From a virus (lineage: Duplodnaviria; Heunggongvirae; Uroviricota; Caudoviricetes): 64,000 bases of DNA. The notes under the pieces are model-generated. The model made no database searches. It worked only from the letters and a program-made list of their open reading frames with translations, and was not told the DNA's origin. This document shows positions 9,661-28,065 of this stretch, piece after piece. The position numbers and the translations under genes are program-made. The stretch's first letter is position 1. The number at the start of each line of letters is the position of its first letter. Location of the stretch: positions 1-64,000 of the IMG/VR virus record IMGVR_UViG_3300018493_000089; one strand, 5' to 3'.

Positions 9661-9672
9661 GGAGTGCCTTGC

Positions 9673-9918
9673 ATGATAAACAAAAAAACTTGGGAAGAAT
9701 TTAGAGATTCTGGAATGTTATGGTAGATCAATATGATTCTGCATATCTTTGGATGGTCAATTGTAGTTGAATTAGAAGATAAAAAAATAATAAATGCATA
9801 TCCGGCAAGGGTAAAATTTAGGGGATTTTCCGAAGAGAATAATACAGAAGGATATAGAAAAGTAAGCAAATATATGTATGAAAACATTAATGAGATTTTA
9901 GAAGAAGCAGAAAACTAA
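9673..9918 (+). CDS. hypothetical Trp-rich small protein (1 in-frame TAG)
   Basis: RBS AAGGAG sits 8 nt before ATG, and the frame stays open through the TAG at 9724. Confidence 0.4.
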
Positions 9919-9929
9919 GGATTGATTAA

Positions 9930-11207: not shown

Positions 11208-11221
11208 GAGGTGATAGTTAT

Positions 11222-11929
11222 ATGAGTCGAATATTTGTGACGGGCGATACACACGGAGATTTTTTCCATATATAGAATTTCTGTCTTGATAATAATACTA
11301 GCATAGACGACATTATGATTGTTTGTGGCGATGCTTGCATAAATTTTTATCTTGATAAAAGAGATGACAGACTTAAAGAAAGAATAGCTGGAATACCAAT
11401 AACATTTCTAATTGTGCATGGAAACCATGAAGAACGAGCTTGGAATGTTAAGGGTTATAAACTGAAAGAACATAAAATTGGAACAGATAATTATGTGTAT
11501 GGATATAGCGAAGAAAAATATCCAAATATAATTTTTGTTCAAGATTTTCATATTGAAACATTGAACGGAAAAAGATTTATGTTCCTTGGTGGTGCTTATT
11601 CTGTAGATAAATTCTATAGATTAGCAATGAACTGGTACTGGTTTGAATCTGAGCAAATGCCAGAAGAGGAAATGCTAGAGGTCTTAAAATTTGTCACAAG
11701 CGTAAGTAATTTCGATTATGTTGTGTCACATACATGTCCGTATAAATATATTCCAACAGAGGCGTTTTTGCCATCGATTAACCAGAATACAGTTGATCAG
11801 AGTACAGAATATTTCTTAGATGAAGTTGATGATTTAATTCAATACAAACAATGGTATTGTGGGCATTGGCATATCAAAAAAGAAATTCAAAAATTAAAAT
11901 TCTTATTTGACGATATTATTGAAATTTAA
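11222..11929 (+). CDS. calcineurin-like metallophosphoesterase (1 in-frame TAG)
   Basis: Motifs GDTHGD, IVCGDA and GNHE. Frame open across the TAG at 11273. Confidence 0.7.
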
Positions 11930-11938
11930 GGTGATTAC

Positions 11939-12304
11939 ATGGATAAGCAGGAAAGAATAACCCAGTTAAAACAAGAAATACGTGAAAAAGAAAAAGAATT
12001 ACATAAACTCGAAAAAGAGATTAATACAGAATTTTTACCTCAATTCGTAGGAAAGTATTTCAAAAGTAAAAATGATTTTTATTACTTAAAAGTATGTGAA
12101 TATGATGAAGAGTTAAATTTGCTAAAAGGTTGGGGAATAACGATAGATAAAGACTGGAATAAAAACAATTTATACACAGCAGAATATTTATCATTTATGC
12201 ATTACCATCTTTTTGACGACAAAACTGAAATCAGCGAAAAAGATTTCGGTGTTGTTTTAAATATATACATCAATTCAATTAAAACAAGTATAGAAAAGGG
12301 GTGA
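11939..12304 (+). CDS. hypothetical coiled-coil protein
   Basis: ORF of 121 aa. Confidence 0.5.
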   Translation: MDKQERITQLKQEIREKEKELHKLEKEINTEFLPQFVGKYFKSKNDFYYLKVCEYDEELNLLKGWGITIDKDWNKNNLYTAEYLSFMHYHLFDDKTEISEKDFGVVLNIYINSIKTSIEKG

Positions 12305-12308
12305 AAAT

Positions 12309-12506
12309 ATGGTTACGTTTTTAGGATTCATGGCTATCGCTAGTGGCATTGTTTTGAGGGCATAGCTCACAATCGATCATCATTGTTCTGACAGAGACAA
12401 ACTAGAACTTAAAGACATTGCAGGTTATATGGTAATCGCAGGTGTCGCTATCATCTTAATTAATACATGGATTGCAAAGCCAGTGATAATTTGGTTGGGA
12501 GGTTAA
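12309..12506 (+). CDS. small two-TM membrane protein (1 in-frame TAG)
   Basis: RBS GGGGTGA. Two hydrophobic helices. Confidence 0.35.
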
Positions 12507-12507
12507 T

Positions 12508-12672
12508 ATGAACCCGGTAGTTATTTTAATAGTTATATTAGTTGCTATTGTTATTTGGCTCTGTTTATCCAAAAAGTTTGTTTGGATTGGGGATAAATTA
12601 TATAACATGTTTAGCGACACAAGAGATATTTTGAGCGAAGAGTTTGATAAAGAAAAGGAGAACAAAAAATGA
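12508..12672 (+). CDS. small single-TM membrane protein
   Basis: RBS GGAGG precedes the ATG (TAAtATG). N-terminal TM VVILIVILVAIVIWL. Stop overlaps the next ATG. Confidence 0.35.
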   Translation: MNPVVILIVILVAIVIWLCLSKKFVWIGDKLYNMFSDTRDILSEEFDKEKENKK

Positions 12673-13580
12673 TGTATGATTACGAAGCGTATGAAAAAGA
12701 AAGAGAAGAAAAACGAAAAAAAGTCAAAAAAGGTCTGATTGGTGGCGGTGTTGTTGCATTTGTTTTACTGATCGGTATTGGTTGTGCCGCTGCATGTATC
12801 GAAAAAATTCCAAACGGCTATTGTGGTGTTCAGTACTCCATGAACGGTGGTATTAAAGATGAAGTTCTAACACAGGGTTGGCATTTCGTATCTCCTTTTG
12901 TGCATGTTAAAGAATTTACAGTTGCCAATGAACAGCTGGTAATGTCTAAGGATGCGAGAGATGGCAGTGAATCTGATGATAGCTTTAATGTGGCAACAGC
13001 AGACGACGCAAGCATTGCAATCAGCTTCAGAATGGAATATGCATTTATTCAGGATGAACTTCCTGATACATTCAAGAGATACCGTGGCATGAGTGGTGAA
13101 GATATTGTTAATAACCGTGTAAGAGGTATTCTGAAATCTAAAATTTCTGAAGTAACAACTAACTATACAATGATGGATATTTACTCCGGCAATCGTAGTG
13201 AAATCAACAGAAAAATTCTGAATCATCTGAACGAAGAATTTAAAGATACATATGGTATTACAGTAATCAATGCAGATATTATTGATGTACATCCAGATGC
13301 ACAGCTACAGCAGACAATTGATAATCGTGTAAAAGCACTGCAGCAGAAACAAGAGGCTCAGGCTAAACAAGAAACAGCAAAAGTAGAAGCCGAAACAGAA
13401 CTGATCAAAGCTAAGAATGCGGCTGATATTGAAATCACAAAAGCAAAGGCTGAAGCAGAAGCCAACAGAGTTATCTCTGAAAGTATTACACAGGGTCTGA
13501 TTGATATGAAAAATGCAGAAGCAAGAATGCAGCATGGCTGGGTAACAATTAAGGGCGCAAATACTGTTGTAACAAAATAA
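12669..13580 (+). CDS. SPFH / band-7 (prohibitin/HflK-like) membrane protein with C-terminal coiled coil
   Basis: N-terminal TM, band-7 core YCGVQYSMNGGIKDEVLTQGWHFVSPF, then an Ala/Lys/Glu-rich coiled coil. Confidence 0.7.
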   Translation: MMYDYEAYEKEREEKRKKVKKGLIGGGVVAFVLLIGIGCAAACIEKIPNGYCGVQYSMNGGIKDEVLTQGWHFVSPFVHVKEFTVANEQLVMSKDARDGSESDDSFNVATADDASIAISFRMEYAFIQDELPDTFKRYRGMSGEDIVNNRVRGILKSKISEVTTNYTMMDIYSGNRSEINRKILNHLNEEFKDTYGITVINADIIDVHPDAQLQQTIDNRVKALQQKQEAQAKQETAKVEAETELIKAKNAADIEITKAKAEAEANRVISESITQGLIDMKNAEARMQHGWVTIKGANTVVTK

Positions 13581-13592
13581 ATTGGAACGAAT

Positions 13593-13616
13593 GGGCGGGG
13601 TTCATTCTCCGCCCTA
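13593..13616 (+). terminator. GC hairpin GGGCGG-ggttcattct-CCGCCC immediately after SPFH gene
   Basis: 6-bp GC stem in an AT-rich context. The T-tract is imperfect. Confidence 0.35.
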
Positions 13617-13629
13617 TTGGAGAAGTAGT

Positions 13630-13911
13630 ATGAAAAAAGAAGATTTTGAATTTATCAAACTGGATGAAAAATATAAAGACTATTGGTTCAAGGTAAAAGA
13701 TAGATCTGTGTCTGAGGCAGTTTTAACTGAACGATATATGGAGCAATCTATGGTTTGTGTATCTGAGGTTGTTTATTCTGTTCACGATGATGTTTTAGGT
13801 GTAAAGCAGCTATTTCCATTTAGCTTTTATGTATTACCAGTGCAAGATGAAGAATTGAAAAAAATAATTTTTTCTTTAATTGATGATATTAAAAAGGAAG
13901 AAGTGAAATAA
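13630..13911 (+). CDS. hypothetical protein
   Basis: RBS GGAG precedes ATG 13630. About 93 aa. Confidence 0.45.
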   Translation: MKKEDFEFIKLDEKYKDYWFKVKDRSVSEAVLTERYMEQSMVCVSEVVYSVHDDVLGVKQLFPFSFYVLPVQDEELKKIIFSLIDDIKKEEVK

Positions 13912-14826
13912 ATGCAATTTTGTAGCAAAGAAGATATTAAAGATTATATTGAAACAAGAAAAGCAGATATCAAAAAATCCGTTCAAAAAAATACCAGCAT
14001 GGGATTTGATGTTCCCACACTGGCGATTATTCAAGTCGGTAGCAATCCTGCATCTAACAAATATGTAAATGGCAAAATTAAGGATTGCGAAGAAGTTGGA
14101 ATGAAAGCTGTATTACATAAATTTAATGAAGACATTGAACCTGTAGATTTTGGAACAGAGATTATTAAAATCATGCATGATGAAATGATTCATGGTGTAA
14201 TTATCCAGAAACCACTGCCCGAAAAATTAGAAAAATATTTTGATAAGTTTGTAAAAATGATTCCAAAGAAAAAGGATGTCGATGGATTTAGAAAAGATAC
14301 TGAGTTCGATCCTTGTACTCCTAAAGGAGTGGTGGATTATATTGAAAGCAGACAGGGTAAAGACTGGCTGACAGGTAAAGATGTTGTCATTATCAATCGT
14401 ACAGAATTGGTTGGTAGGCCACTTGCAAAAATGATGTTGGATAGAAATGCGACAGTTACTGTTTGTCATAGTAAAACAGAGCGTCTGCGGAATCATTGCC
14501 AGTATGCAGACATTGTTGTGAGTGCTATTGGCAAACCTAAAATTTTAATTAGAGACTATGTTAAGCATGACAGTGTATGTTTTGATGTAGGAATTAGTTT
14601 TGATGAAAACGGAAAAATGTGTGGCGATTTTGACAGAGATAACGTAATGAAAATAACAGATTATTGCACACCTGTTCCTGGCGGCGTCGGTTTACTGACA
14701 AGAATTGCTCTTGTAGAAAATGTATTAAAAGCATATGAAAATCAGAAGTATAGAGCAAGTATGATTCCTAATGCAGAAAAGGATGAAAACAATGTGGGGA
14801 ATTACAAGTCTTATGAGAGAAAATAA
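13912..14826 (+). CDS. folD: bifunctional methylene-THF dehydrogenase / methenyl-THF cyclohydrolase FolD
   Basis: Motifs [36 protein letters not shown] and [10 protein letters not shown]. Confidence 0.85.
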
Positions 14827-15514
14827 TCACACTGGAGCCAACGAAATTGATACATATATTTCAGAAGTAAATAGTCAGGATAACTTTATTGCTGAAGTTA
14901 ATTCTTTGCCGATGCCGGAAAGTTATCCTCACGAAAATGATAGATTTTACATTCCAGAAGAATATAAAAATATGACTAGCAAACAATTAAAAAATGCTAA
15001 AAAAGCATGGGAAAATTATTTTAAAGAAAGAGAAAAAATGAGGGAATCATTATTTGGAGAAGGAGCAACTACCATGAATAAAAAAGAAATTAAAATTAAA
15101 TATTTTACAGATGAAATCGAAAAGCTTCGCTATATTGATGGAAAATCTGATTGGATTGATCTTAGAGCAGCAGAAGATGTTTCAATTAGTGCTGGTGAAT
15201 TTAAACTAATCCCTCTTGGTGTGGCAATGCAATTACCAGAAGGTTACGAAGCACATATTGTTCCTCGTAGTTCTACATTTAAAAATTTTGGCGTGATTCA
15301 GACAAATCACATGGGCGTTGTTGATGAAACATATTGCGGCGATAATGATCAGTGGTTTATGCCTGTATATGCGGCGAGAGATACTGTAATTAAAACAAAC
15401 GACAGGGTTTGCCAGTTTAGAATTGTAGAACATCAGCCAGCGATTGATTTTATTGAAGTTGAAGAGCTGGGAAATGATGACAGAGGCGGTCATGGCAGTA
15501 CAGGCAAGCAGTAA
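14792..15514 (+). CDS. dut: dUTPase with ~95-aa N-terminal extension (canonical core also startable at ATG 15075)
   Basis: dUTPase motifs [16 protein letters not shown] and [10 protein letters not shown]. There is no stop between the 14792 ATG and the core. An internal RBS AAGGAG precedes the ATG at 15075. Confidence 0.65.
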
Positions 15515-15526
15515 GAGGTGATATTG

Positions 15527-15820
15527 TTGATTAAAAGAGCATATGCAAGACATCTTGCTGATAAATATAATTAGAATATAGAGAGTCTGATTATCGAAGC
15601 AGCAAACATGGGTAAATATGAAATTGAGTATATTGTACCAATTCCTTCTGATAAACCTTGGTGTAAGTATGACTATCAAGATAAGGCATATCAATTAGCA
15701 CACAATATTGAAAAAAATGGATATCAAGTTGAAGTGAGATGTGAAGAAATCGCCGCAACAAATACAATCGGTAAAAGTGTATACACATCCATATCATATA
15801 TTTTAAAAATTAAATGGTGA
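15527..15820 (+). CDS. hypothetical protein (TTG start, 1 in-frame TAG)
   Basis: SD AAGAGG sits 8 nt before TTG. The frame is open through the TAG at 15572. Confidence 0.35.
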
Positions 15821-16215: not shown

Positions 16216-16245
16216 AACCTTGATATATCAACGATATAAGAAGTT
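16190..16245. other. candidate attP core (contains perfect palindrome TTGATATATCAA)
   Basis: Placed between the miaB fragment and the integrase 3' end. Palindrome at about 16219-16230. Confidence 0.25.
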
Positions 16246-17883
16246 CTGTGTTAAGCCATTCTTAAATTTAATTGCCAAAACTGTGCTGTTATCACCCACA
16301 GAAACATAATCAATAACATTATTGAAGAAATCTTGTAGTTGTTTTTCATCAACATTCACGGCTAATTCTTGATAGGAAATTTCTTTTCCTCTGCCGAGTT
16401 CCCAGTCGATGATACATCTATCAAGTAATTTATTGTCAACCAGTGGAAGCATTGCATCTTTATTCTGATTTGCTGCATGTATCTGCTGGTTGATTTCATT
16501 TAATTCAGCAGTTAATTTTGTTCTTTTTTCGAGATAATCTCTTTCAGGCATACTGTCATCAGAAAACAGATATAAATCATCCAACCTTTTTAAAGCTCTC
16601 TCGATTTTTTCTTGACGCTGTTTAAATACTTCTGTGTCAGAATATTCAGTATTATGACTGACTGTGATAAGTTTATTCGGCTTGTAACCACATTTTAAAA
16701 CTTCTTTTATATCCTCGATACTCTGTTGACTGATATATGCAACATCTTTGAAGGCTTTACCAGATAGTAATCTTTCTTCTAAGTTAGTAAAGTCTTTACT
16801 GTTTTGAATGGTAATCATATTACTCATATAATTTAAAATGAAATTACCAAGATATGTATCCGTGATAGCGCCTTTACTCATACAGGTATTACCGTGCATT
16901 CTGTTAGAGCATCTATAAGAAGAAGGGTGGTATCCATTTTTTCTTTTAGTATCTTTGTGTGCAGATGTGCCTCCGCCACATAATCCACATTTTAATAAAC
17001 CGCTAAAAGAATGTGTATGACCGCCCACAATTCTTCGTCTGCATGGTTCAGCTCTTTTTTGAAGAATTGCATTCACTTTATCAAACTGTTCTTGTGAAAT
17101 AATTGCTTCATGATTATTTGGTACAATGACCCATTCTTCTTCTGGTCTAATCTTACCTCTACCACTTTCTTGGTAGTTGTATCTTAGTGTACCAATGTAG
17201 AAGGGGTTTCTTAGCGTCTGTGTGATGGATTTAGCATACCAGTTACCATTTCTCTTGGTTGGAATCTTTCGTTCATTTAAGAGCCTTGCAATGCGTAATA
17301 CGGATGGTTCTCTTTCGTATTCATCAAAAATCATTTGTACAATCTTCTTTTCATCTTCATCAACAACTGGATACATGCTTTCTGGATCAAATTTGTATCC
17401 TAATGGAGCCGCTGTGCCATTCCATTTACCTTCTTTGGCTCGTGAAATCATTGTTGCTCTTACTCTGACTGCAGTCATTTCTCGTTCCAACTGAGCAAAT
17501 GTCATGATGATATTCAACATTGCTCGACCCATAGGTGTGTCTGTCTGAAAATTATCAGTCTTACTTACAAACTGAATATCTAAATCTTCAAACTCATCCC
17601 ACATTTTTGCGAAGTCACCAATGTTTCTAGAAATTCTATCTAGTTTCCAAACTACAACATGAGAAAATTCTTTATTTCTCAACCTTTGCATCATACTCTG
17701 AAAAGCGGGACGATCTGTATTCTTAGCAGAATACCCAGCATCTTCAAAAATTTCATAATCTTTGACACCAAGAACAATCTCACAATAATTGATTAAATCT
17801 TTTTTCTGCATTGGAAGTGAATCTTTATCTGCTTGATAAATTGTACTTACTCGTACATAGATTGCTGCTTTACTGTTTTTAAT
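16228..17883 (-). CDS. large serine recombinase (phage integrase), no canonical start codon; probable ATT initiation
   Basis: N-terminus AAIYVRVSTIYQ with the catalytic Ser. Resolvase core, recombinase domain, zinc ribbon CGLCGGGTSAHK...YRC and a coiled coil. The reading frame opens after a TGA. It contains SD AAAGGAGG followed by ATT ATT ATT and has no ATG/GTG/TTG before the catalytic Ser. No TAG. Confidence 0.8.
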   Translation of the reverse strand: MKNSKAAIYVRVSTIYQADKDSLPMQKKDLINYCEIVLGVKDYEIFEDAGYSAKNTDRPAFQSMMQRLRNKEFSHVVVWKLDRISRNIGDFAKMWDEFEDLDIQFVSKTDNFQTDTPMGRAMLNIIMTFAQLEREMTAVRVRATMISRAKEGKWNGTAAPLGYKFDPESMYPVVDEDEKKIVQMIFDEYEREPSVLRIARLLNERKIPTKRNGNWYAKSITQTLRNPFYIGTLRYNYQESGRGKIRPEEEWVIVPNNHEAIISQEQFDKVNAILQKRAEPCRRRIVGGHTHSFSGLLKCGLCGGGTSAHKDTKRKNGYHPSSYRCSNRMHGNTCMSKGAITDTYLGNFILNYMSNMITIQNSKDFTNLEERLLSGKAFKDVAYISQQSIEDIKEVLKCGYKPNKLITVSHNTEYSDTEVFKQRQEKIERALKRLDDLYLFSDDSMPERDYLEKRTKLTAELNEINQQIHAANQNKDAMLPLVDNKLLDRCIIDWELGRGKEISYQELAVNVDEKQLQDFFNNVIDYVSVGDNSTVLAIKFKNGLTQNFLYR

Positions 17884-18116
17884 AATAATACCTCCTTTTA
17901 ATCGTCAGCAAACAACATACCTTTTGCATTAATAAAAGCACTCCTTATACTTTCATTGTAACAAGATGGTGTTTTGCTGTATAGTACAAAATTTTTTGAT
18001 AATAACATATTTTTTGCATAAAAAGTTTCTATAATGTAAATAAATATCCATATATTACCGCTTGTAAATTTAAGGAAGCCATACTACACTTATATTAAGA
18101 GAAAGGGGAGAGAATA

Positions 18117-18341
18117 ATGGCTAGAAGACCTAAAGAATACAAAACGACTGAACAAAAAATTATGGATGTAGTAAATGAAATTCAGATAACTGAAGAACAT
18201 TTAACTGAATTAAAAAATCAGAAAAAATTATTAGAAAGAGATTTAGAACAAGAAAAAATTGATGTACTATTAATGTCAATTAAAAATAAAAATATTTCTA
18301 TTGACAAAGCAAAAGAAATTATTGATAATATGCAAGAGTAA
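18117..18341 (+). CDS. hypothetical coiled-coil protein
   Basis: RBS AAAGGGGAG; 74 aa. Confidence 0.45.
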   Translation: MARRPKEYKTTEQKIMDVVNEIQITEEHLTELKNQKKLLERDLEQEKIDVLLMSIKNKNISIDKAKEIIDNMQE

Positions 18342-18377
18342 CATCCACAGTTATTCCATCTTTCTAAATCCAAGAAT

Positions 18378-18403
18378 TGCCCGCTATTTGCGGGCTTTTC
18401 TAT
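18378..18403 (+). terminator. rho-independent terminator (GCCCGC-tattt-GCGGGC TTTTC); a convergent minus-strand hairpin follows at ~18410-18450
   Basis: GC stem followed by a T-tract. Confidence 0.6.
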
Positions 18404-18453
18404 TTGTAAAAAAATAGGGAGGCATAGATAATGCACTCCCTAAATTCTTTATA

Positions 18454-19176
18454 TTATTTCTTTTTATCTAAAATAGGTGTACCACCTTTATTAGAAATAT
18501 TGTAACCGAATATTGCACCAATGTCTCTGGTTTTAATATATGTATAACCATCTTTATTAATCATTTCGACAGTATACTCTTCGCCATCAACAATAATATT
18601 TTCTCTTACAATCACTTCATCGTCCTCCTTATATTTTTCAGGAATTTCAATTTCCCAGTAATATTTTTGCTGTTTTATGAAGCGATCCCAAGGCATTTTA
18701 GAACAAATTTCTTTTTTATTATAAGGATCGTTAATAAGAACATTGTCACCATCCATTGCATAACAAAGAATATAATGTCCAGAAGATGTAAAATCGCCTT
18801 TTCCAGCAACTGCAATAATCCAATTGCCATTCTCTAACGATTTTCTAACTTCTTTGTGAACAGATGCGTTTGGTTTATTATAACAGTTAGCACTGTTCAT
18901 CATTCTACATTTTATTCCATACTCAGCCATCTGTGGTTTGAAATAAGCGTAGTATGTACCTTGTTTTAATGCTTTATATCCATGTGATTTAGACCATTCA
19001 GCAGTATCGATAGGTGTTACTGTTTTGCCGGTTATTGAAGAAATAACCATAGCAGAACAAGTAATCCCACATCCTTCTGCTTTAATGGTTGTCTGTTCTC
19101 CTTTGGTAGAGTAATCATGGTTTGCCCATTTTGGATCTGTCTGATAATACATCACAGGTCTGCCTAATTTATTCAT
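18454..19176 (-). CDS. endolysin, peptidase C39-like/CHAP-type cysteine amidase with C-terminal wall-binding domain
   Basis: RBS GGAGGTGA and motif YYQTDPKWANHDYS...GCGITCSAMV. No TAG. Confidence 0.65.
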   Translation of the reverse strand: MNKLGRPVMYYQTDPKWANHDYSTKGEQTTIKAEGCGITCSAMVISSITGKTVTPIDTAEWSKSHGYKALKQGTYYAYFKPQMAEYGIKCRMMNSANCYNKPNASVHKEVRKSLENGNWIIAVAGKGDFTSSGHYILCYAMDGDNVLINDPYNKKEICSKMPWDRFIKQQKYYWEIEIPEKYKEDDEVIVRENIIVDGEEYTVEMINKDGYTYIKTRDIGAIFGYNISNKGGTPILDKKK

Positions 19177-19191
19177 TGGTTTCACCTCCAA

Positions 19192-19226
19192 ACAATAAAA
19201 AAAGAACAGGGGGGTTAACCCTGTTC
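19192..19226 (-). terminator. terminator after holin (GAACAGGG-gggttaa-CCCTGTTC + T-run on minus strand)
   Basis: 8-bp stem followed by a T-tract on the minus strand. Confidence 0.5.
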
Positions 19227-19540
19227 AATAATGTCTGTTTTTAACTCGGCATCTGTATTAGAAATATCAATACGAAGTTCTGTGACAGCACGTTTAATAT
19301 AAGCTTTAACTTCTTTTTCATCAAAAGTGATTTTATATTTATTCAGAAATTCCACCATTGCATCCCAAACCTACTGTGCTTTATCTTCTATTTCGCCAGT
19401 GATATGTAACTCATTCGCTGCAGAAACCAGTGTTTTTGCAACTTTTAAAATTACTGTTCCTTTCAGCATAGGAATCCAATATTTCTTACTAAAGAATACA
19501 ATACAAATAATTAATAATTCAAAAATCCATGTAATATCCA
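19214..19540 (-). CDS. holin (LL-H-like: N-terminal TM then VAKTLVSAANE...IEQG) with 1 in-frame TAG
   Basis: RBS AAGGAGG sits 8 nt before ATG 19540. TAG at 19370-19372. Confidence 0.5.
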
Positions 19541-19559
19541 TTTTCGATGCCTCCTTATA

Positions 19560-19901
19560 TTAGAAATTAGGGTAATCATTACTTACTTCTGCCATCTCTT
19601 CGTAAATAAAATCGTCACCATATTTCTTTTTCATTTCATTGATATTCTTCAGTCTTTCCATTTCAATATCCACTCTATCTTTCTGTTTACATCTAAAAGC
19701 ATAGCACATTAATGCAATTGCACCTAAAATACAAACATATTTAATGAGATCAGGAAGGGCAGAGTAGTCTCCAGATTCTGTCATTGCTCTCGTACACCAA
19801 TGAATAAACCAAGCGACACCAATCATTACTCCGCCAACTAAAACTTTAGAATACTCTTTTTTTCTTTTTGGTTTAACTGCAGTAGTTTTTTTGGTAGCCA
19901 T
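19560..19901 (-). CDS. two-TM membrane protein (second holin/antiholin candidate)
   Basis: SD GAGGTGGTGA. TM helices VLVGGVMIGVAWFI and ILGAIALMCYAF. Confidence 0.4.
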   Translation of the reverse strand: MATKKTTAVKPKRKKEYSKVLVGGVMIGVAWFIHWCTRAMTESGDYSALPDLIKYVCILGAIALMCYAFRCKQKDRVDIEMERLKNINEMKKKYGDDFIYEEMAEVSNDYPNF

Positions 19902-19912
19902 GTTTCACCACC

Positions 19913-20491
19913 TCATTCTTCAAATTCATCAACTACAGACCATGTATAAATTTCTGGCTGAACAATGTTTTGAACAAAACTATTGCCATTGACCGCAAAC
20001 TATTCTTCAACCAATCCTTCCAAAGCATCCAGCTCCATAGCTGTAATCTTTTTAGTTTTATGATGCAAACGATATGCTCTCATTATTTTATCTTTTAATT
20101 CTGCACGAATTCTTTTTTGATTGCGTTCTTCACTTTCTGCAAAACGCTGGTCTGTTTTTCTTTGATTTTCTTGCATCATCCTAGACAATTCTGTAAGCTG
20201 TGTGGCTAATTGAGTATTAGCATCAATAAGTTGTTTTTGAATTTCAAATGATTGCTCACGGTCATGTTTACGATTATCTTCATATGCACAAATTCTGTCA
20301 TGATCCGATAACAACATATTCAGTAACTCATCTTTCCGTTTTCTCGTCTGATACCAAGAATCCCAAAGACCTTTGATATCTTTTCTGTTTGATAAAAACC
20401 ACCCAATCACAACTCCTAAAATAATCAAACTAACAAGAAGAGTAGAAGAGGGGATTCTATCTATATAATCAATTAATTCGGTAAGTGTCAT
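19913..20491 (-). CDS. N-terminally anchored coiled-coil membrane protein (lysis-associated); terminal TAG at 20000 read through to TGA 19913
   Basis: TM LLVSLIILGVVIGWFL. If TAG is sense, a 29-aa extension ends in the next gene's RBS. Confidence 0.35.
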
Positions 20492-20556
20492 TTTCTCACC
20501 GCCTTTTCCTCCGAAAGTGTTGCAATCATATAAAGCCTCGCTTTCTACAAAATTAC

Positions 20557-21378
20557 TTATTGTTTTCTAAGCTTATCTCGAATCTTTTTTTCAGAATCAT
20601 ATATGTTAATATAATGTGTGCCAAGAATTTTAGGGATACGATTTATTTGAGAAATCAGTTCTTCTAATTCAGCGATATCCAGACTACATTTATGATCTGT
20701 ACCTTCCATAGTTTTGTCTAATGTAATATGTCTTTCAATAATATCTGCACCTTTAATAACAGAAATCAGAGTAGGCAGCGTATCAATTTCATGACCGCTA
20801 TATCCAATTGCTAAAGTGGGGTACATGTTTTTTAATCTTGTAATAACATTTAAATCCAACTCATCGTCAGCACATGGGTAAGTACTATTACAATGTAAAA
20901 TACCAAGTAAATTATCTAAGTTATATATTGCATTTAAAACTTCTGGTTCAGTGCTCATCCCATCAGAAATAATAACAGGAATACCCCAATCATTAATGGC
21001 ATGGATTAATTCCATGTCTGTAATACATGCACTTGGAATCTTGATAAAAGGTATATCATAACTATATTGCTTCATAAATTCAACACTATTTACATCCCAT
21101 ACACTAACAGTCCACTTAATACCAATTTTTTGACAAAACTGATTAATAATATCGTATTCTGTTTTACCAAATTCAATTGACTTTTTATATTCAAGATAAG
21201 TCATTTCTTCACCTTTCCAGATGCGTTTAACATTTTTTTGATGTTCAGGAACACAAAAGTCTGGATCACGCTTCTGAAACTTTACAACATCAACACCACA
21301 TCGTTTTGCTTCTTGAATTAACTGTAGTGCTGTGTATAATTCTCCGTTATGATTAATTCCAATTTCTCCAATAAACAT
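20557..21378 (-). CDS. NeuB-family nonulosonic acid (sialic/pseudaminic/legionaminic acid) synthase
   Basis: MFIGEIGINHNGELYTALQLIQEAKRCGVDVVKFQ is the canonical NeuB N-terminus. No TAG. Confidence 0.8.
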   Translation of the reverse strand: MFIGEIGINHNGELYTALQLIQEAKRCGVDVVKFQKRDPDFCVPEHQKNVKRIWKGEEMTYLEYKKSIEFGKTEYDIINQFCQKIGIKWTVSVWDVNSVEFMKQYSYDIPFIKIPSACITDMELIHAINDWGIPVIISDGMSTEPEVLNAIYNLDNLLGILHCNSTYPCADDELDLNVITRLKNMYPTLAIGYSGHEIDTLPTLISVIKGADIIERHITLDKTMEGTDHKCSLDIAELEELISQINRIPKILGTHYINIYDSEKKIRDKLRKQ

Positions 21379-21380
21379 AT

Positions 21381-22028
21381 TTAAAACTCCTCTTTAATCC
21401 TTACAATATCGTCTAGTTCAATTGTAGAACTTTCAATAATGACTAAATCTGTAATGGCTTTTACTTGATGAATTGTGCCAGCCGGAATTCTGATAGTGTC
21501 ACCAATATTTATACGAAACTCTTTTCCGTCTACTTTGGCAATCCCAACACCTTCAACAACATGCCATGTCTCATGTTTTTTAACATGATATTGTAGAGAT
21601 ATATTTAATCCTGCATCAATATGCAATCTTTTCATTGCATAGTTTTTAGTGATGTCCAGTAAATACTCTTTACCCCAACGCTTGTTGATTACAGTTAAAC
21701 TTTCGGCATCATCTTTAGATATCAAATAATTTGCATTACAACCCTTATCATCTATGTAAACATCTGCAGCGGGTTTGCCAAATCTCAGTTCATGCTATTT
21801 TACACCCCAATCAGATAATTGTTGCGTTGTAAGATCGAACCAATCAATTCCAGTTTCTGTGCCACGAGCAGTATAATAAACCACTTTATTTCCGTTATCA
21901 TACAAAGTGTTTGCCATTTGTATCATATCCATATATGGTTTTGCGTCCGCATAATTTTCTTCTTGACTACAGATAGTTCCATCAATATCAAAAATGTACT
22001 TTAGAGGTTTCGTATTTGAATTTTGCAT
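21381..22028 (-). CDS. HAD-family phosphatase fused to a cupin domain (join crosses in-frame TAG at 21795)
   Basis: HAD motif I FDIDGT...TARG and motif KPAADVYIDDKG lie on opposite sides of the TAG. A cupin region WGKEYLL...HVKKHETWHVVEG follows. Confidence 0.45.
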
Positions 22029-22656
22029 ATTCGTAATCCTCCTTTGTATCAATATCGATGGTTTGTTCTTCGGGAATTTCAATCAGTGCCAAATCGTCTT
22101 TCAGCATATATCCATCTAATTTAAATAATTCTTTATTAAAAATATGGAAGCAATGTGCGGCTTGATATAATGGATCAATTTCTTTTGTGGTTAATTTTTG
22201 ATAATCAATATCCGTTTTAACATTGATATCTTTATCCCAAAGCCAGTTTTGAAATCTTTTAACGCTTGTGCCATATTCTTTTTTGCTCGCTAAGAATTGG
22301 CCGATTGATGAAATAATAGTTTGTGGTGTTAGAAAAATGAGGCATGGATTTAGAAACATTAAGTATTTTTCTGGTACGCCAAGAATGTCTTTAAAAATAA
22401 ATCGTAATGGAGTTTCTGCTTCTGCTGTAGCAGGGTGACGAATAATAATTTGTACATTTGGATATTTTTTAGCAATATCAATTAACTCTTTGTCACAAAC
22501 CAAGACATATGTATTTAGACCATAATAACTTTTAATATAATCCAGTTTCTTACAACAGATTTCAAACATACAAGTATCACCAATTGGTAAAGTCTGTTTG
22601 TTTGGTAATCTCTGACTACTCAATCTTGCTGGCACAAAAATTCCTACATGTTTCAA
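21988..22656 (-). CDS. CMP-nonulosonic acid cytidylyltransferase (NeuA/PseF-like)
   Basis: N-terminal motif GIFVPARLSSQRLPNKQTLPIGD. Confidence 0.65.
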   Translation of the reverse strand: MKHVGIFVPARLSSQRLPNKQTLPIGDTCMFEICCKKLDYIKSYYGLNTYVLVCDKELIDIAKKYPNVQIIIRHPATAEAETPLRFIFKDILGVPEKYLMFLNPCLIFLTPQTIISSIGQFLASKKEYGTSVKRFQNWLWDKDINVKTDIDYQKLTTKEIDPLYQAAHCFHIFNKELFKLDGYMLKDDLALIEIPEEQTIDIDTKEDYEYAKFKYETSKVHF

Positions 22657-23471
22657 TATAAAATACCTCCTTTTTCTCGTGTGTATCTCCCGCCACTATT
22701 ATTGCAATAAAAACACGGCATATCAGATGTAAACTCTGCAGAAGTTACACTTTTTACAAAATCTAAATATTTTTTAGATGATAGCATTTCGGATAATTTG
22801 CTTTCTTTTAAATCACCTAAAATATATTTTTTTTGATTTTCACAATCGTTTCTCACATTACAGCATGGGCTAACTGTCCCATCATAATTAATTCCAATAA
22901 AATAAATAGGCTCATAACACGGAGCCTCTCTTTTTATCTTAGAATATTCTGTTAAATTACCTCCACGATCAGAAATATTTGCTGTTTCTAACCATGAGTA
23001 ATAATAGAGAATTGTTTTCTCATTGTATCTACCTACAAAATAATGGTCATATTCAATGATATCTGAAACATTCCATTTTTGTAATTGTTGCAAAACAAAA
23101 TCTCTGCCTTTATAATCGTAATCCATAATAGTTAATTCATCGACTAACATTGTTTGAAGAATTTGCTCATTAATATAATCGCCATTCGTGTTTGACACAA
23201 TTGTTGTATCAGGAAAATAATGTTTTATTAATTGCATTGCATCACGCAATTCTTCGTGATTTGAAAATGGCTCATTATAACGTGAAAATGAAAATTTTCC
23301 TTCATATCCATTAACTTTTAATTCTTGGAGGAGAGTGGTAAACACATTATAATTAAGCCATTCAATTTTACTTTTGCGGTCTATATAACTATTTGGACAC
23401 CAGTTGCATTTGCGATTGCAATAAGAAAATAATTCTATTTCCACCAATCTAAGTTTTGAAATAATATCCAT
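22653..23471 (-). CDS. radical SAM protein with C-terminal SPASM/twitch Cys cluster
   Basis: CNRKCNWC (Cx3Cx2C), later CYEPIY...SPCCNVRNDCENQ...CFYCNN. Confidence 0.65.
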   Translation of the reverse strand: MDIISKLRLVEIELFSYCNRKCNWCPNSYIDRKSKIEWLNYNVFTTLLQELKVNGYEGKFSFSRYNEPFSNHEELRDAMQLIKHYFPDTTIVSNTNGDYINEQILQTMLVDELTIMDYDYKGRDFVLQQLQKWNVSDIIEYDHYFVGRYNEKTILYYYSWLETANISDRGGNLTEYSKIKREAPCYEPIYFIGINYDGTVSPCCNVRNDCENQKKYILGDLKESKLSEMLSSKKYLDFVKSVTSAEFTSDMPCFYCNNSGGRYTREKGGILY

Positions 23472-23472
23472 T

Positions 23473-24168
23473 TTATTCAAATCCTTTTATCCATTGATTA
23501 AATGCTGTTTCATCGTTAATATATTTACTAGGTGTAACATCTTGATAATTATAAAAATTTTCAGATAATTGACGTTGATAATTCATGGTTGCATTTATCA
23601 ATTCACCTACATACTAAGTTGTATATTGTATAGTATATTTATCTACTAACAAACACCCTATATTTTTAGGCGGGATATAATTCACTACAGAATCAAGATA
23701 TAAATAGCGATATGATAATGGCGAAGATAATTTTAAAGATTGATAATAATCCATAAGATTCTATACACAGTCATTAGATATGATACATAAAACTTTATAG
23801 TCAGGAGATAATTCGCCATCATCCATTAAAAACCTTAAAGCAGCAACACGATGTCTACCTTCATACACATAAAAACATCCTTTATTTTCTATAGGGTAAA
23901 CACAAAGAGGGAAGTACATTCCTTTAGATAGTATCTCTTCACCAAAAGCTTTTTGCTTTTCTTTATATTTTTTTATAAACGGATTATCAATATTTTGGCT
24001 CCATATATCTTTGTCATTGTCAAGAGGGTCTGGAAATAAATATTGGATACTTATAAACTTGAAATCTAATATATTGCTGCGTATAAGGGGGCGTAAGGCA
24101 TAATATATATAATCCGAATGATATATTTTAGAAAATTGCTCTACAGAACAATTAATTCTAGTCAACAA
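23473..24168 (-). CDS. ParB/Srx-like nuclease-domain protein; C-terminal extension through 2 in-frame TAG
   Basis: Motif VYEGRHRVAALRFL. A 96-codon stop-free extension follows the TAG at 23761 and ends at TAA 23473, next to the following gene's start. Confidence 0.35.
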
Positions 24169-24182
24169 AATATCATCTCCTA

Positions 24183-24338
24183 TTATACTATTTTATTACC
24201 ATTAGAGTCATACCCTAACGCCGTTAAAAGATGTAGTACATCTAATAAAAACTCATCAGGCACTAATTTCACTTCAGTATTATTTTTATCACAAGTTCTC
24301 AGTCCTGCTTTTACTAATCTAAAATATAATTCTGCCAT
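24183..24338 (-). CDS. small hypothetical protein (MAELYFRLVKAGLRT...)
   Basis: RBS GGAGGTAA. TAATG overlap with the upstream gene. Confidence 0.3.
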   Translation of the reverse strand: MAELYFRLVKAGLRTCDKNNTEVKLVPDEFLLDVLHLLTALGYDSNGNKIV

Positions 24339-24670
24339 TATTCATTACCTCCAGACTTATTTATAAATGCTTCATAAATAGTAGCTTGAGCTTCCATAAT
24401 AATTAAATTGTCTGCTTTTTGAGACTCATATTGTTCTGCTATAGCCTCCATGATAACTAAAATGTTTGAGGGTTCTTGAAGTAAAGATTCAATACTAGAT
24501 AATTTATCTAATACAGTATTATCTTCGCTCTTTAATCCAATATCTATAAATTCACCTTCTACATATTTTTTATGAAGAACATCAAGTCCTGTTTCTACTA
24601 CATTCTCGTGGAATCCAGGATCACTAGCTATAAGAACACAGATATCATTTTCATCTAATATAGCATACAT
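24338..24670 (-). CDS. hypothetical protein
   Basis: ORF of 110 aa. Confidence 0.45.
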   Translation of the reverse strand: MYAILDENDICVLIASDPGFHENVVETGLDVLHKKYVEGEFIDIGLKSEDNTVLDKLSSIESLLQEPSNILVIMEAIAEQYESQKADNLIIMEAQATIYEAFINKSGGNE

Positions 24671-24717
24671 AATTCATGATACCTCCTTTAATAATATATA
24701 CGATAAGAACTATTACT

Positions 24718-25587
24718 CTATAGTTTCACAATATAAGGTATACCATCCACAGTTCTAATACATCCTTGACTAACTAAATAATTATAAAGATAGTAGTCAT
24801 TCTGTGTCCATAGTTCAGTTCTATCTAATCTAGGAGCTGGATTTAATTCTGCAGCATCTCCGTAACCATAAGACTTCAAAGAATTTGCTATATATAACTC
24901 TGTAGTTACAGTTCTTTTGAAACCCATAATTCTGCAACGAACATTCTGTATATCGAAGTCAGCTCCACTCGATGGCGTACCATAAGTGTTTACTATCATC
25001 GCAAGCTTGAAAGTTTGACCCGCATAACTGTTACCAAGCCCATAATTAGTATATATTTTATCATATGTTTTTGAAGTACCGGCGGCTATATTACTCAAAC
25101 TTTCCAATGAAAACATAGGGGAAAAATTCCCAGCACTATCTACTGTACCAGCATGAAATCTGAGAACTCCAGGGTTACTTCCTACATGAGTGTACTTACA
25201 GTCAACTCTTATTCCGCAAGTATCTGCAAGTATTTGAATGTCACCCAATACGACATATCCAGTATCTTGATTACATCTTGTGGCGGTAGATAAAAAATTA
25301 AATGTCTGACTTGCAGTTTTCACCAAATAATCATCAGCTCTCTTTAGTGGAGCAACATTTGCAGATATATTATTAATTAAAGTGTTTGCAGCCTCTACTT
25401 TAGTTTTTACAGTTGCCAAATCATTTTTAACACTAGATATATCATTTTTAACTCCAGATACATCAGTTCTCACATTAGACACATCAGTTTTAACTCCTGA
25501 TACATTTGTGTTAACTTCTTGTAATGTAGTTTGTTTCGCCATATCCATACTAGGATCTAAATCAAACTCATTTATTTTAGAAGACAT
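24718..25587 (-). CDS. tail fibre / receptor-binding-like protein with N-terminal heptad repeats
   Basis: RBS AAAGGAGG sits 8 nt before ATG. Repeats VSGVKTDVSNVRTDVSGVKNDISSVKNDLATVKTKV. Confidence 0.5.
   Translation of the reverse strand: MSSKINEFDLDPSMDMAKQTTLQEVNTNVSGVKTDVSNVRTDVSGVKNDISSVKNDLATVKTKVEAANTLINNISANVAPLKRADDYLVKTASQTFNFLSTATRCNQDTGYVVLGDIQILADTCGIRVDCKYTHVGSNPGVLRFHAGTVDSAGNFSPMFSLESLSNIAAGTSKTYDKIYTNYGLGNSYAGQTFKLAMIVNTYGTPSSGADFDIQNVRCRIMGFKRTVTTELYIANSLKSYGYGDAAELNPAPRLDRTELWTQNDYYLYNYLVSQGCIRTVDGIPYIVKL
25418..25530. repeat. about five imperfect 21-bp tandem repeats encoding 7-aa units inside the fibre gene
   Basis: Repeats acatcagttttaactcctgat / atatcatttttaactccagat etc. 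The antisense frame gives LTPDTSVLT repeats in the ORF track. Confidence 0.55.
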
Positions 25588-25602
25588 TTTTCATTCCTCC
25601 TT

Positions 25603-25640
25603 TTTAAAATAAAAGAGGGTAGTTAACCCTCATGAAATTT
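25603..25640 (-). terminator. terminator (GAGGGT-taac-tACCCTC + T-run) upstream of fibre gene
   Basis: Hairpin plus a T-tract on the minus strand. Confidence 0.5.
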
Positions 25641-25657
25641 TATTGTGTTTAGTTAAA

Positions 25658-25810
25658 TCACTCAGCGTAATCTTCGCCAGTGATTTCTTTGTATTCTTTT
25701 TTTGTCAGAGAATTCTTTTCGCCATTTTCAACTCTGATTACAAACTCATCTTTTGTTTTTACTCCTGCTTCATACAGGCGTTTCATACTCTCAATGATTT
25801 TAGTATTCAT
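25658..25810 (-). CDS. XkdX-family small phage protein
   Basis: MNTKIIESMKRLYEAGVKTKDEFV...KEYKEITGEDYAE matches the XkdX signature. TAATG overlap with the upstream gene. Confidence 0.55.
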   Translation of the reverse strand: MNTKIIESMKRLYEAGVKTKDEFVIRVENGEKNSLTKKEYKEITGEDYAE

Positions 25811-25995
25811 TACAGAACACCTTCTTCCATTAACATTGCTGTATATTCATCAATTGCAGCATTTGCGATTTCTTCGTTTGTCTTTGACACCATAGCCTCG
25901 ATACGATCTAACTGAGAAAGCTCAATAACTATTTCTTGTTTTACATCCACCCATTCTCCATTTTCATACTTTTTACCAAGTGGATTGAAATTCAC
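25810..25995 (-). CDS. hypothetical small protein (GTG start, no RBS)
   Basis: 61-aa ORF, offset by one frame from the upstream 73-aa ORF. Confidence 0.25.
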   Translation of the reverse strand: MNFNPLGKKYENGEWVDVKQEIVIELSQLDRIEAMVSKTNEEIANAAIDEYTAMLMEEGVL

Positions 25996-26213
25996 ATCAA
26001 CGCAGAAAGTGCACAGGTAGTTGTTGTGCTGTCGGAAGTAAGTGTTGTGATAATCCGCTGGACGGATTTAATGCAGGTTGCTGTAACTCCTACATTAAGA
26101 GTATTATTTAAATTATTGACCTTTCCTAAAATTTCTTCAGATGTACTCTGCATAGCAACTCCATCAAAAACAGAATCATCAAGAGATCCAGCCATAATTT
26201 TTGAAGAACCCAT
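25992..26213 (-). CDS. hypothetical small protein
   Basis: ORF of 73 aa. Confidence 0.3.
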   Translation of the reverse strand: MGSSKIMAGSLDDSVFDGVAMQSTSEEILGKVNNLNNTLNVGVTATCIKSVQRIITTLTSDSTTTTCALSALM

Positions 26214-26838: not shown

Positions 26839-28065
26839 TTAACCTAAGAATTTAATGATAACTGCACCAGGTTGTCCATTTGCACCATGACTTGAACCAG
26901 AAGCATTACCAGAACCGCCATTGCCACCTGTACCATAAGAACCAATAGAACAGCCACCAGATTGTCCAGATGCTAAATTTCCGTATGATGTACCTACAGC
27001 ACTACCTCTATTGAGACGCGTACCTACAAACTGAGCACCTGTGCCACCCTTACCACCTGCAACGGAGTATAAATTACCAAAAGATGTAGTTCCTCCTTGT
27101 TCGCCATTATAGCCACTTATATAAGTCGCAGATGAAACTTGTACATCTTTTTTCATACCTCTTACCCCTGCGGCGCCTATAGTAATTGTATATGATGCAC
27201 CTTTTGATAAAGTTGTAGTATATAAAGCACCAGAACCACCACCAGCACCACCATTTGCGCCTGCATATGTGGATTTATCAGAAGTTACTCTAATACCACC
27301 AGCACCGCCTCCACCACCACCATGTAATTCGATGGAGTACTGACCATCATCTGGTACAGTGAATGTGCCATTGGAAGTAAAAGTCCATGTATACCCAACA
27401 GGGGTGTCCGCAGATGAGAAAAACTTCCTTGCTACATTATCTACACCAACATGACTAACTTTTATTTTTCTAGAAACATTGTTTATACCTGTCTATTTTT
27501 TTTTAACTTTTCTAGACACACCAGTTGATGTATGTACAGTGATTGTTGTGCTATTTAAAAAATATGGTATATTAGCATCACACCATTCCTTTGTTGGTTC
27601 ATTCCCAGAACCGAAACAAGCAGTTAAATCAATCAACATTGGCTCTTTTCTATAAGTAACTGCAGAAGTATTTACTACGAAGTTTCTAAACACCCATGTT
27701 CCACTCACATCTGTAAATGCTTTTGTGTTTGATGTCATTTCCCAATTGTCGGTTTTCTAATGATATGCCCATACTGACAGACAATTTGCGTCAGAAGCCC
27801 AGTATTCAAATCTACCATCGCTAAATGTTGAGTTTACTGGTGCTTTAACCATACATCGAATGTAATAAATATGGTTAACAACAGGTGCATTTAACATAAC
27901 AGTGAAATGAGAGTCGCCACTAGCAACCGGAAATACAAACTCTTCATATGCATTCACAGATGGTAAAGTCGCACCACTTTTAGTCCAAGCAGAAGGTTGG
28001 GGAAGTAAATTGGTGAGTCCAATTTGAATCTCTGATGTACTACTAACATACATTCCTTTAGCCAT
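26839..28065 (-). CDS. Gly-rich tail fibre/spike protein spanning three track ORFs (2 in-frame TAG)
   Basis: SD GGCGGTGA before ATG 28065. Frame continuous through TAGs at 27757 and 27493 to TAA 26839. Gly-rich segments HGGGGGAGG...GGKGGTG...GGNGGSGN. Confidence 0.45.

Follow-up and report, generated by a model that had tools for sequence, protein, structure and literature searches.

What sugar do the biosynthetic genes beside the fibre genes of a tailed phage build, and for which surface? The question is raised by a 64,000-nucleotide (nt) stretch of virus DNA (Caudoviricetes; positions 1 to 64,000 of the IMG/VR record IMGVR_UViG_3300018493_000089), hereafter the window. Its minus strand carries, at 20557–23480, four contiguous and co-oriented enzyme genes encoding a NeuB-family synthase, a HAD-cupin protein, a CTP_transf_3 protein, and a radical S-adenosylmethionine (SAM) protein with a SPASM domain. 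Adjacent genes overlap by 4–41 nt or are separated by 2 nt, and the GC content of the region is low (~0.30–0.36). An initial annotation, made from the letters alone, had described these four genes as a contiguous, co-oriented block between a lysis module and the tail fibres. The overlapping or abutting genes, with their Pfam and motif support, and the flanking genes (a C39-like peptidase and membrane proteins on one side, fibre-like genes on the other) bear this out, and its domain calls held up in a hidden Markov model (HMM) check, in which PF03102, PF01050, PF02348, and SPASM all scored above the Pfam cutoffs. We read the cassette as a late operon that would build, from central metabolites and via a phosphorylated intermediate, a 3-deoxy-nonulosonic acid of the 3-deoxy-D-glycero-D-galacto-nonulosonic acid (KDN) type, activated with cytidine monophosphate (CMP); to our mind the case for this reading and the case against it are about evenly balanced.

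Enzymes of the cassette and a fifth gene beside them

The synthase gene (20557–21378) encodes 273 amino acids (aa), which matched NeuB (PF03102) over 238 of 241 profile positions in a Pfam scan (E = 2.3e-62; 211 bits vs a cutoff of 22.1). No SAF domain was matched in this protein, and its TIGR alignment ends at profile position 278 of 329. At residues E5, K33, Q35, K113, S116, N164, Y167, S194, H196, E215, H217, and D228, an alignment of 29 sequences (A1) shows no variation or almost none; presumably, these residues correspond to the catalytic and metal-binding residues of the Neisseria meningitidis enzyme. The best NCBIfam models were NeuB_NnaB (3e-62) and PseI (8e-45), and the scores lie below the equivalog cutoffs for both NeuB (TIGR03569; 210.5 vs 399.65 bits) and PseI (TIGR03586; 153.4 vs 340.25 bits). 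Solved bacterial NeuB, PseI, and SpsE proteins scored 77–118 bits, with Leptospira NeuB (6ncs) as the best PDB match at 118 bits, PseI as the second best, and N. meningitidis NeuB at 77 bits. A presumed sequence of human NANS aligned at 169 bits, with 34% identity and few gaps over the whole catalytic domain. The two proteins presumably have in common an insertion after KFQK, an IGYSGHE motif, and an ERHITLDK motif; the insertion is absent from the short Leptospira NeuB. We propose that the SAF-less phage protein is a nonulosonate-9-phosphate (KDN-9-P-like) synthase.

The adjoining gene (21381–22028) encodes a HAD phosphatase in its N-terminal ~100 aa and a phosphomannose isomerase (PMI)-type cupin in its C-terminal ~114 aa, which form one open reading frame (ORF) once a TAG codon is read as tyrosine. 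The initial annotation had called a HAD-cupin fusion. The fused protein stands, but in the standard code there are two ORFs, and the fusion depends on a TAG read-through that had been missed: the HAD ORF would end at the in-frame TAG at 21795–21797 (WGVK-TAG-HELRFGKP on the minus strand), within the HAD domain and ahead of motifs III and IV, and the cupin would begin at an internal codon. This TAG aligns with tyrosine in PDB entry 9iqw and in two relatives of the phage (L001 and L009), and in L009 the HAD-cupin gene is a single uninterrupted ORF. After read-through, HAD motifs I–IV are legible as DIDGT, YYTARG, GKP, and YIDDK. We treat the two domains as a single protein because the phage reads TAG as sense (see below). 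The best solved relative of the HAD domain is 9iqw, a 'capsule biosynthesis protein' (2e-11); the domain also matched phrog_1238 (5e-30), and its match to Pfam HAD_PNKP fell under the cutoff. The cupin matched PF01050 (3.7e-14; 53.3 bits vs a cutoff of 23.6) and the C-terminal PMI part of GMP_PMI (8e-12).

The CTP_transf_3 gene (21988–22656) overlaps both of its neighbors. Its product matched PF02348 (3.3e-7; 30.8 bits vs a cutoff of 22.6) and carries the N-terminal CTP loop of the PAR-x-S-x-RLP-x-K type as PARLSSQRLPNK. The PseF model aligned over its full length (residues 7–216; 2e-11), missing the equivalog cutoff at 44 vs 205.7 bits, and among solved structures it matched 6oew (1e-4). Homologues with 44–69% identity adjoin the radical SAM gene in relatives. 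We propose that this protein is a CMP-ulosonate synthetase.

The radical SAM gene (22653–23480) overlaps the cytidylyltransferase gene and is translationally coupled to it. The protein contains the CX3CX2C motif (CNRKCNWC) and a SPASM domain above the cutoff (5e-10), with the Pfam Radical_SAM match just under it (24.9 vs 29.5 bits). BtrN is its sole strong solved relative: the alignment spans the whole protein (residues 11–263; 1.1e-17), and Cys187, 205, 254, and 257 align with the four cysteines that hold the auxiliary cluster of BtrN. BtrN is a dehydrogenase whose substrate is a sugar-like cyclitol and not a peptide. HygY, a related radical SAM enzyme of the twitch type, is a sugar epimerase that likewise acts on a sugar-like substrate. 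The best NCBIfam matches of the phage enzyme are peptide maturases (6e-13 to 5e-5, N-terminal half), and solved maturases gave E values of 0.008 (YydG) or above. We rejected a peptide-maturase reading, BtrN being by far the best full-length relative, and propose a BtrN-like enzyme with one twitch/SPASM auxiliary cluster that would act as a sugar dehydrogenase or epimerase.

Upstream in transcription order lies a further gene (23473–24168, minus strand) that the initial annotation overlooked as part of the unit. Its ORF of 231 aa has in-frame TAG codons at 23761–23763 and 23614–23616, and past both of them, but not before, the C-terminal part (PSKYINDETAFNQWI) shows homology to relatives. An AlphaFold (AF2) model of the first 135 residues (predicted local distance difference test score 79.6) retrieved in Foldseek the ParB/Srx fold only: Noc, KorB, PadC, CDP- or CTP-bound ParB, sulfiredoxin, and the serine kinases SerK and SbnI. 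All 41 top matches have this fold at a probability of ~1, although the TM score is only ~0.45 and E values are 2e-3 or above. The family conserves a G-x-Y-x-P ... EG-x-HR motif, in which EGRHR, with the G-x-HR signature of nucleotide binding in this fold, is invariant. It has no Pfam family and no PHROG, and a word-indexed homologue search with the protein retrieved the protein itself alone. The family is small (336 representatives among 1.84e9 proteins), and its HMM matched 20 of the 22 phage loci that bear the radical SAM gene. The gene belongs to the unit as a conserved fifth member, and its product has a predicted fold of the nucleoside triphosphate (NTP)-binding type.

How would these proteins act together? 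Judging from family membership, the cupin domain would interconvert fructose-6-phosphate (Fru-6-P) and mannose-6-phosphate (Man-6-P). The short NeuB, with its catalytic residues intact, would condense a sugar 6-phosphate with phosphoenolpyruvate (PEP) to give an ulosonate-9-phosphate; we infer a phosphorylated substrate because the SAF domain is missing, a phosphatase is linked, and the protein resembles NANS. The HAD domain, which co-occurs with the synthase, would remove the phosphate, and the CTP_transf_3 enzyme, again by its family, would make the CMP-sugar. The BtrN-like enzyme, of which fold and cluster type are seen, would oxidize or epimerize one sugar carbinol and so yield an unusual derivative. 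The ParB/Srx-fold protein would be an obligate partner, speculatively an NTP-dependent kinase or a CMP-binding component. The full-length HAD-cupin and ParB/Srx-like proteins would be made solely when TAG is suppressed as tyrosine. With a PMI-type cupin, the simplest chemistry would be Fru-6-P → Man-6-P → KDN-9-P → KDN → CMP-KDN, and the predicted gene set would be sufficient for Fru-6-P or Man-6-P + PEP + CTP → CMP-sugar. The product would most likely be put on fibre or baseplate proteins of the virion late in infection.

A CMP-activated NeuB-type ulosonic acid pathway and a radical SAM partner acting as a sugar-type enzyme, both anticipated by the initial annotation, thus agree with the domain set and with the likeness to BtrN. 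The sialic, pseudaminic, or legionaminic acid-like identity that it gave to the sugar is not supported: equivalog cutoffs are missed, the SAF domain is absent, and no enzyme for amino-sugar precursors (NeuC, PseB/C/H/G, or LegB/C/H/G) was found in the relatives or in scans of ~55 of the 69 ORFs in the window. Since these enzymes are lacking and the synthase travels with a phosphatase, we prefer a KDN-type route through a 9-phosphate to one that leads to sialic, pseudaminic, or legionaminic acid.

Decoding of in-frame TAG codons

With TAG as a sense codon, the window holds 69 genes at a coding density of 95.6%; 48 in-frame TAGs fall in 35 of these genes, and all genes end in TAA or TGA. Early and late genes alike contain them, for example NrdD (6262, 6481, and 7138), ThyX (4405 and 4564), and a 671-aa gene at 59611–61626 (61506 and 60921). 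The coding density, the uninterrupted fusion gene of L009, and the gene caller of the Logan record, which also used a TAG-sense code, are the reasons to read TAG as sense. No gene in the window requires TAG as a stop. At five places (24720, 36657, 47732, 53550, and 20002), an in-frame TAG lies only 4–29 codons before the next TAA or TGA; these could be residual true stops, sites of leaky termination, or short tyrosine-containing extensions.

The residue was read from well-aligned TAG sites in orthologues from four related contigs (L001, L009, L089, and L090). TAGs of the window face tyrosine at 10 sites and TAG at four, and TAGs of the four contigs face tyrosine at 14 sites of the window, TAG at four, and lysine at one; overall, 24 sites have tyrosine, eight TAG, one lysine, and none glutamine. 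The two TAGs in the L001 NeuB gene fall on columns that are tyrosine in 120/121 and 117/121 homologues, and one copy of the fibre repeat ST-G-x-Q-Y-I-D/N-T contains a TAG. About 4.5% of tyrosine codons are TAG. We rejected the standard code and code 15 (TAG as glutamine), with TAG in sense use across the window and 24 tyrosines vs no glutamine at aligned sites. Apparently, this phage reads TAG as tyrosine and not as glutamine.

No tRNA, and therefore no suppressor tRNA, was found in the window, nor did Rfam match anything there. On a Logan contig that carries window DNA, ~2.15 kb past window position 64000, nucleotides 1–27 (L092:1–27) resemble a tRNA 3' end (GGTTCGATTCC...CATCCGCA), which points to a tRNA array, probably with a suppressor, just outside the window; exact-pattern scans gave no extension of this end. 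The related contig L089 (IMGVR_UViG_3300045988_185107), which has the same recoding, contains a 12-tRNA array that includes an 85-nt tRNA with a CUA anticodon (L089:797–881). It is a class II tRNA with a long variable arm, discriminator A73, and the anticodon loop CUCUAAA, and it is closest to phage tRNA-Tyr(GUA), with 66 of 85 positions identical vs at most 57 for serine, leucine, or other CUA tRNAs. By these features, it looks like a naturally occurring suppressor of the supF kind.

In several huge IMG/VR phages of 158–197 kb (L177, L180, L184, L190, L191, L193, and L194), another kind of CUA tRNA (90 nt, with a long variable arm) lies ~600 nt from a 90-nt tRNA-Tyr(GUA), and two other contigs (L176 and L188) have two CUA tRNAs beside a transfer-messenger RNA gene. 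Judging by these sequences, amber suppressors with several origins seem to circulate among phages.

TAG is absent from the gene of the large serine recombinase, both in the window (16228–17811) and in L001 (11801–13456). It is likewise absent from the host genes that flank the L001 prophage (L001:13468–18644), at a GC content of 0.41–0.47 vs 0.25–0.35. This pattern would fit a host with the standard code that carries a recoded prophage whose lysogeny genes stay readable without a suppressor.

The papers that we found report phages reading TAG as glutamine or TGA as tryptophan or glycine, and as tyrosine they model TAA only; we found no description of TAG read as tyrosine in phages, and an amber-to-tyrosine code in a phage is apparently undescribed. 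Public gene calls for this lineage (P0002, P0121, and those of L093) go wrong in two ways: code 11 splits genes, for instance NrdD into 218 and 424 aa, and cuts the ParB-like protein at 135 aa, and code 15 puts glutamine at invariant tyrosine positions (NeuB P0002).

The transcription unit and its recurrence in other genomes

In transcription order, the minus strand runs from a fibre-like gene (24688–25587) through a 110-aa ORF (24338–24670) to the ParB/Srx-like, radical SAM, cytidylyltransferase, HAD-cupin, and NeuB genes, then to genes for small membrane or coiled-coil proteins that look holin-like (19215–20491) and a C39-like, lysis-type peptidase (18454–19191); the large serine recombinase comes last. 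Terminator-like hairpins lie upstream of the fibre-like gene (25615–25631, minus strand) and downstream of the small membrane protein genes (19204–19226, minus strand). Between 25615 and 19226 there is a single weak hairpin, inside the radical SAM gene, and no strong terminator on this strand. From these consensus terminator scans, on which the call is based, we read the cassette as one putative late transcription unit with the fibre-like gene, the small ORF, the ParB/Srx-like gene, and the holin-like genes. Gene order is kept in four independent relatives (L001, L009, L013, and L025), so the juxtaposition is not by chance.

We take the phage to be large and temperate, with an anaerobic Firmicute as its host. 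Its backbone (window 1–15820, plus strand, and L092–L094) looks SPbeta-like and adapted to an anaerobe; it encodes DNA polymerase III alpha, DnaB, primase, ThyX, NrdD/NrdG, FolD, dUTPase, an ATP-dependent ligase, SPFH, and YonJ/YonG-type domains. This backbone is present on contigs of 91.6 kb (JGI Ga0187907_10000728) and 128.9 kb (ENA ERZ27248306 k141_2930023), and an identical early protein occurs in at least 22 contigs of public assemblies. A giant fibre protein (30723–34562; 1279 aa; also L001:2134–5136) consists of ~5 repeats of a ~200-aa module that starts with (E/G)STG-x-QYI(D/N)T and ends with LYD-x-V-x-x-x-(F/Y)YN-x-G-x-G-x-F, with DUF5048 near residues 407–508.

Beyond this lineage, homologues of the short NeuB, 270–285 aa long, number in the thousands, and at least 548 IMG/VR contigs encode it. 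Of 88 phage loci with the short NeuB, 52 also have HAD, 64 have CTP_transf_3, 22 have radical SAM, and 18 have the cupin. The radical SAM type of module adjoins fibre or baseplate genes in differing backbones, namely in the relatives L001 and L009, in L006 (a myovirus-like prophage within a 4.7-Mb genome), and in L007. Relatives exchange tailoring genes, including a second SPASM protein, a carbamoyltransferase, methyltransferases, and a 2-oxoglutarate (2OG) dioxygenase called by eye. Marine loci (L033 and L076) surround the same NeuB/HAD/CTP_transf_3 set with glycosyltransferases, FkbM methyltransferases, a pyruvyl transferase, GNAT, PhyH, a weak Maf-like domain, and another NeuB, which does contain SAF. 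At L017:5597–6307 and L076:12043–12912, the slot between the cytidylyltransferase and NeuB genes holds a by-eye 2OG/Fe(II) dioxygenase (HxD...H) or a PhyH match; in these relatives from other environments, such proteins may stand in for the radical SAM enzyme as tailoring enzymes that depend on oxygen.

The module recurs across hundreds of uncultivated phages. Among deposited phages, positions 18001–26000 gave no DNA match, and a tblastn search of 50,697 deposited phage records with NeuB returned three distant records only. PHROGs holds no family for the NeuB, cytidylyltransferase, radical SAM, or ParB-like proteins, and we found no description of a phage nonulosonate cassette in the literature.

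Cells also carry the short NeuB. A sample of 80 cellular loci out of at least 576 matches (Ignavibacteria, Chlorobi, Chloroflexi, Bacteroidota, and others) had HAD at one locus, CTP_transf_3 at six, and radical SAM at none; throughout these loci (L096–L175), the short SAF-less clade is unlinked to phage-type HAD, cytidylyltransferase, and radical SAM genes. In Hymenobacter negativus (L141:5611–9773), it lies with a split transketolase, a class-III aminotransferase, and a short-chain dehydrogenase/reductase (SDR), a context that suggests a different, uncharacterized ulosonic acid pathway.

Product, purpose and known counterparts

Several points weigh against a KDN-type sugar made for the virion. 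We infer the identity of the sugar in its entirety, and the resemblance to human NANS, seen with a presumed NANS sequence, is a lead and not a database result. The phosphatase is of the TIGR01689/9iqw type, unlike the KdsC-type phosphatase of the sole characterized bacterial KDN pathway. The cupin motif reads QYHVKKHETW, with lysine and threonine at two positions that, in what we take to be the PMI consensus, are histidine. The cupin is confined to the 18 phage loci given above, and HAD is absent from 36 of the 88. Cellular relatives in other contexts mean that the substrate of the clade is not fixed. The scans of ~55 window ORFs found no glycosyltransferase, and the genome measures at least 129 kb, with at least 65 kb of it outside the 64-kb window. 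Lastly, a set of lysogenic-conversion genes would also suit this place beside the recombinase.

As for purpose, we lean towards virion decoration because the operon is of late type, TAG occurs in two genes of the unit but not in the recombinase gene, and the module stands beside fibre genes in unrelated phages. That Ser/Thr-rich fibres are glycosylated, as first suggested, is still a guess: in the ~55 window ORFs scanned, there is no Pfam domain of a glycosyltransferase, sialyltransferase, or Maf-type transferase. A fibre-region protein at 26839–28065, with two in-frame TAGs, ends in a Gly_rich_2 domain (2e-4), and in the unrelated prophage L006 a Gly_rich_2 protein lies four genes upstream of the radical SAM/cytidylyltransferase/NeuB module. 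It is possible that the Gly_rich_2 protein is the acceptor or that the pairing is coincidental.

The same chemistry could serve the host surface instead: the CMP-sugar would be handed to a host transferase and remodel the envelope (capsule, S-layer, teichoic acid, or flagellin), either for lysogenic conversion or superinfection exclusion in the lysogen, or as a late block that keeps progeny from re-adsorbing to debris. We regard this as a serious rival, if an unlikely one. The cassette is found at the prophage end, 2.7 kb away from the serine recombinase, where conversion genes classically sit, and the window scans found no phage transferase that would use the sugar. Nevertheless, the block is co-oriented and overlapping with the late genes, with no terminator or convincing separate promoter; TAG in two of its genes and none in the recombinase means that these two are probably decoded only when the suppressor is expressed; and the L006 module sits inside a tail module, away from any integrase.

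A bolder form of the virion-decoration reading, to which we give somewhat less credence than to host remodelling, would have the five-gene module (ParB/Srx, BtrN-like, cytidylyltransferase, HAD, and NANS-like NeuB) make an undescribed oxidized or epimerized nonulosonic acid. A non-canonical transferase, with the CTP/CMP-binding ParB/Srx protein as a candidate, would attach this sugar to fibres, in a phage lineage that reads amber as tyrosine via a tRNA-Tyr-derived CUA suppressor.

The product itself might be an amino-nonulosonic acid (N-acetylneuraminic (Neu5Ac), pseudaminic, or legionaminic acid), as the initial annotation had it, here made from a host-supplied acetamido sugar and then CMP-activated. 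NeuB_NnaB and PseI are indeed the best NCBIfam models of the synthase, PseF is the best for the transferase, and PseI is the second-best structural match. All three scores, however, are far under the equivalog cutoffs, the window scans (~55 ORFs) found no genes for NeuC, PseB/C/H/G, or LegB/C/H/G, and the bacterial routes to Neu5Ac, pseudaminic, or legionaminic acid have no use for a dedicated phosphatase. The SAF domain of N. meningitidis NeuB supplies an arginine that binds the N-acetyl group, and this domain is absent here. We consider an amino sugar improbable.

A product without nine carbons seems to us just as improbable. Here, the short NeuB would join PEP to a different aldose phosphate, such as one of a pentose or heptose supplied by the cupin isomerase, and give a longer ulosonic acid or one like 3-deoxy-D-manno-octulosonic acid. 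The short clade is uncharacterized, its cellular members stand with transketolase, aminotransferase, and SDR genes, and the PMI metal motif is incomplete in the cupin, all of which would suit such a product. Against this, the cupin passes the PF01050 threshold and, to our knowledge, all characterized NeuB-family enzymes make C9 acids.

It is more doubtful still that the radical SAM gene and the ParB/Srx-fold gene stand apart, as a system that modifies fibre proteins or nucleic acid and just happens to neighbor a three-gene sugar pathway. SPASM enzymes are mostly peptide maturases, in keeping with the NCBIfam matches, and ParB-fold proteins are usually associated with DNA. But full-length BtrN (1e-17) far outscores YydG (0.008), translation couples the radical SAM and cytidylyltransferase genes, and the radical SAM, ParB/Srx-like, high-identity CTP_transf_3, and NeuB genes occur together at 20 of 22 loci in differing backbones. 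DNA hypermodification, prompted by the ParB fold and the cytidylyltransferase, was rejected, with no base-modifying enzyme nearby and the module in tail regions.

On the surfaces of bacteria and animals, nonulosonic acids are key determinants, and phages use them as receptors. If a route to such a sugar is indeed widespread in phages, they would be adding sialic-like sugars either to the apparatus with which they adsorb or to the surface of the host, which bears on host range, on interactions with gut mucus and immunity, and on phage therapy. The BtrN-like enzyme and its ParB/Srx-fold partner would offer new sugar chemistry. The amber-to-tyrosine code matters in practice, in that public pipelines fragment the genes or place glutamine at invariant tyrosine positions.

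How does the cassette compare with known systems? The KDN pathway of Bacteroides thetaiotaomicron reportedly comprises a KDN-9-P synthase (BT1714), a KDN-9-P phosphatase (BT1713), and a CMP-KDN synthetase. The proposed phage pathway follows the same logic, with a synthase of the NeuB family that uses a sugar 6-phosphate, a HAD phosphatase of its own, CMP activation, and no amino-sugar steps. The phage phosphatase, however, is a HAD of the TIGR01689/9iqw type fused to a cupin and not a KdsC-type tetramer, and the phage system is phage-borne, would be expressed late, and adds the BtrN-like and ParB/Srx-fold proteins. Animal NANS and NANP likewise pair a phosphorylated substrate with a HAD phosphatase, and the synthases presumably share the motifs named above, but the phage lacks the antifreeze-like/SAF C-terminal domain and a GNE-type epimerase/kinase for N-acetylmannosamine 6-phosphate. 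Bacterial NeuB/PseI/LegI and NeuA/PseF/LegF belong to the same two families (PF03102 and PF02348), with the catalytic residues kept; unlike them, the phage proteins fall under the equivalog cutoffs, without SAF and without enzymes that tailor UDP- or GDP-sugars, and come with an additional phosphatase.

BtrN, the 2-deoxy-scyllo-inosamine dehydrogenase of butirosin biosynthesis, is matched over its full length, in the CX3CX2C motif, and in the four auxiliary cysteines. It belongs to aminoglycoside biosynthesis and the phage enzyme to a putative nonulosonate operon, and the latter has two additional cysteines (C206 and C212). Mycobacteriophages that glycosylate their virions reportedly encode glycosyltransferases in the structural operon and draw on host nucleotide sugars. 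Here, too, genes of sugar metabolism lie among late structural genes; unlike mycobacteriophages, this phage encodes the predicted nucleotide-sugar pathway itself and, in the window, no recognizable transferase. Set beside these systems, the cassette is a new phage-borne form of a known kind of pathway, joined by two unexplained conserved partners.

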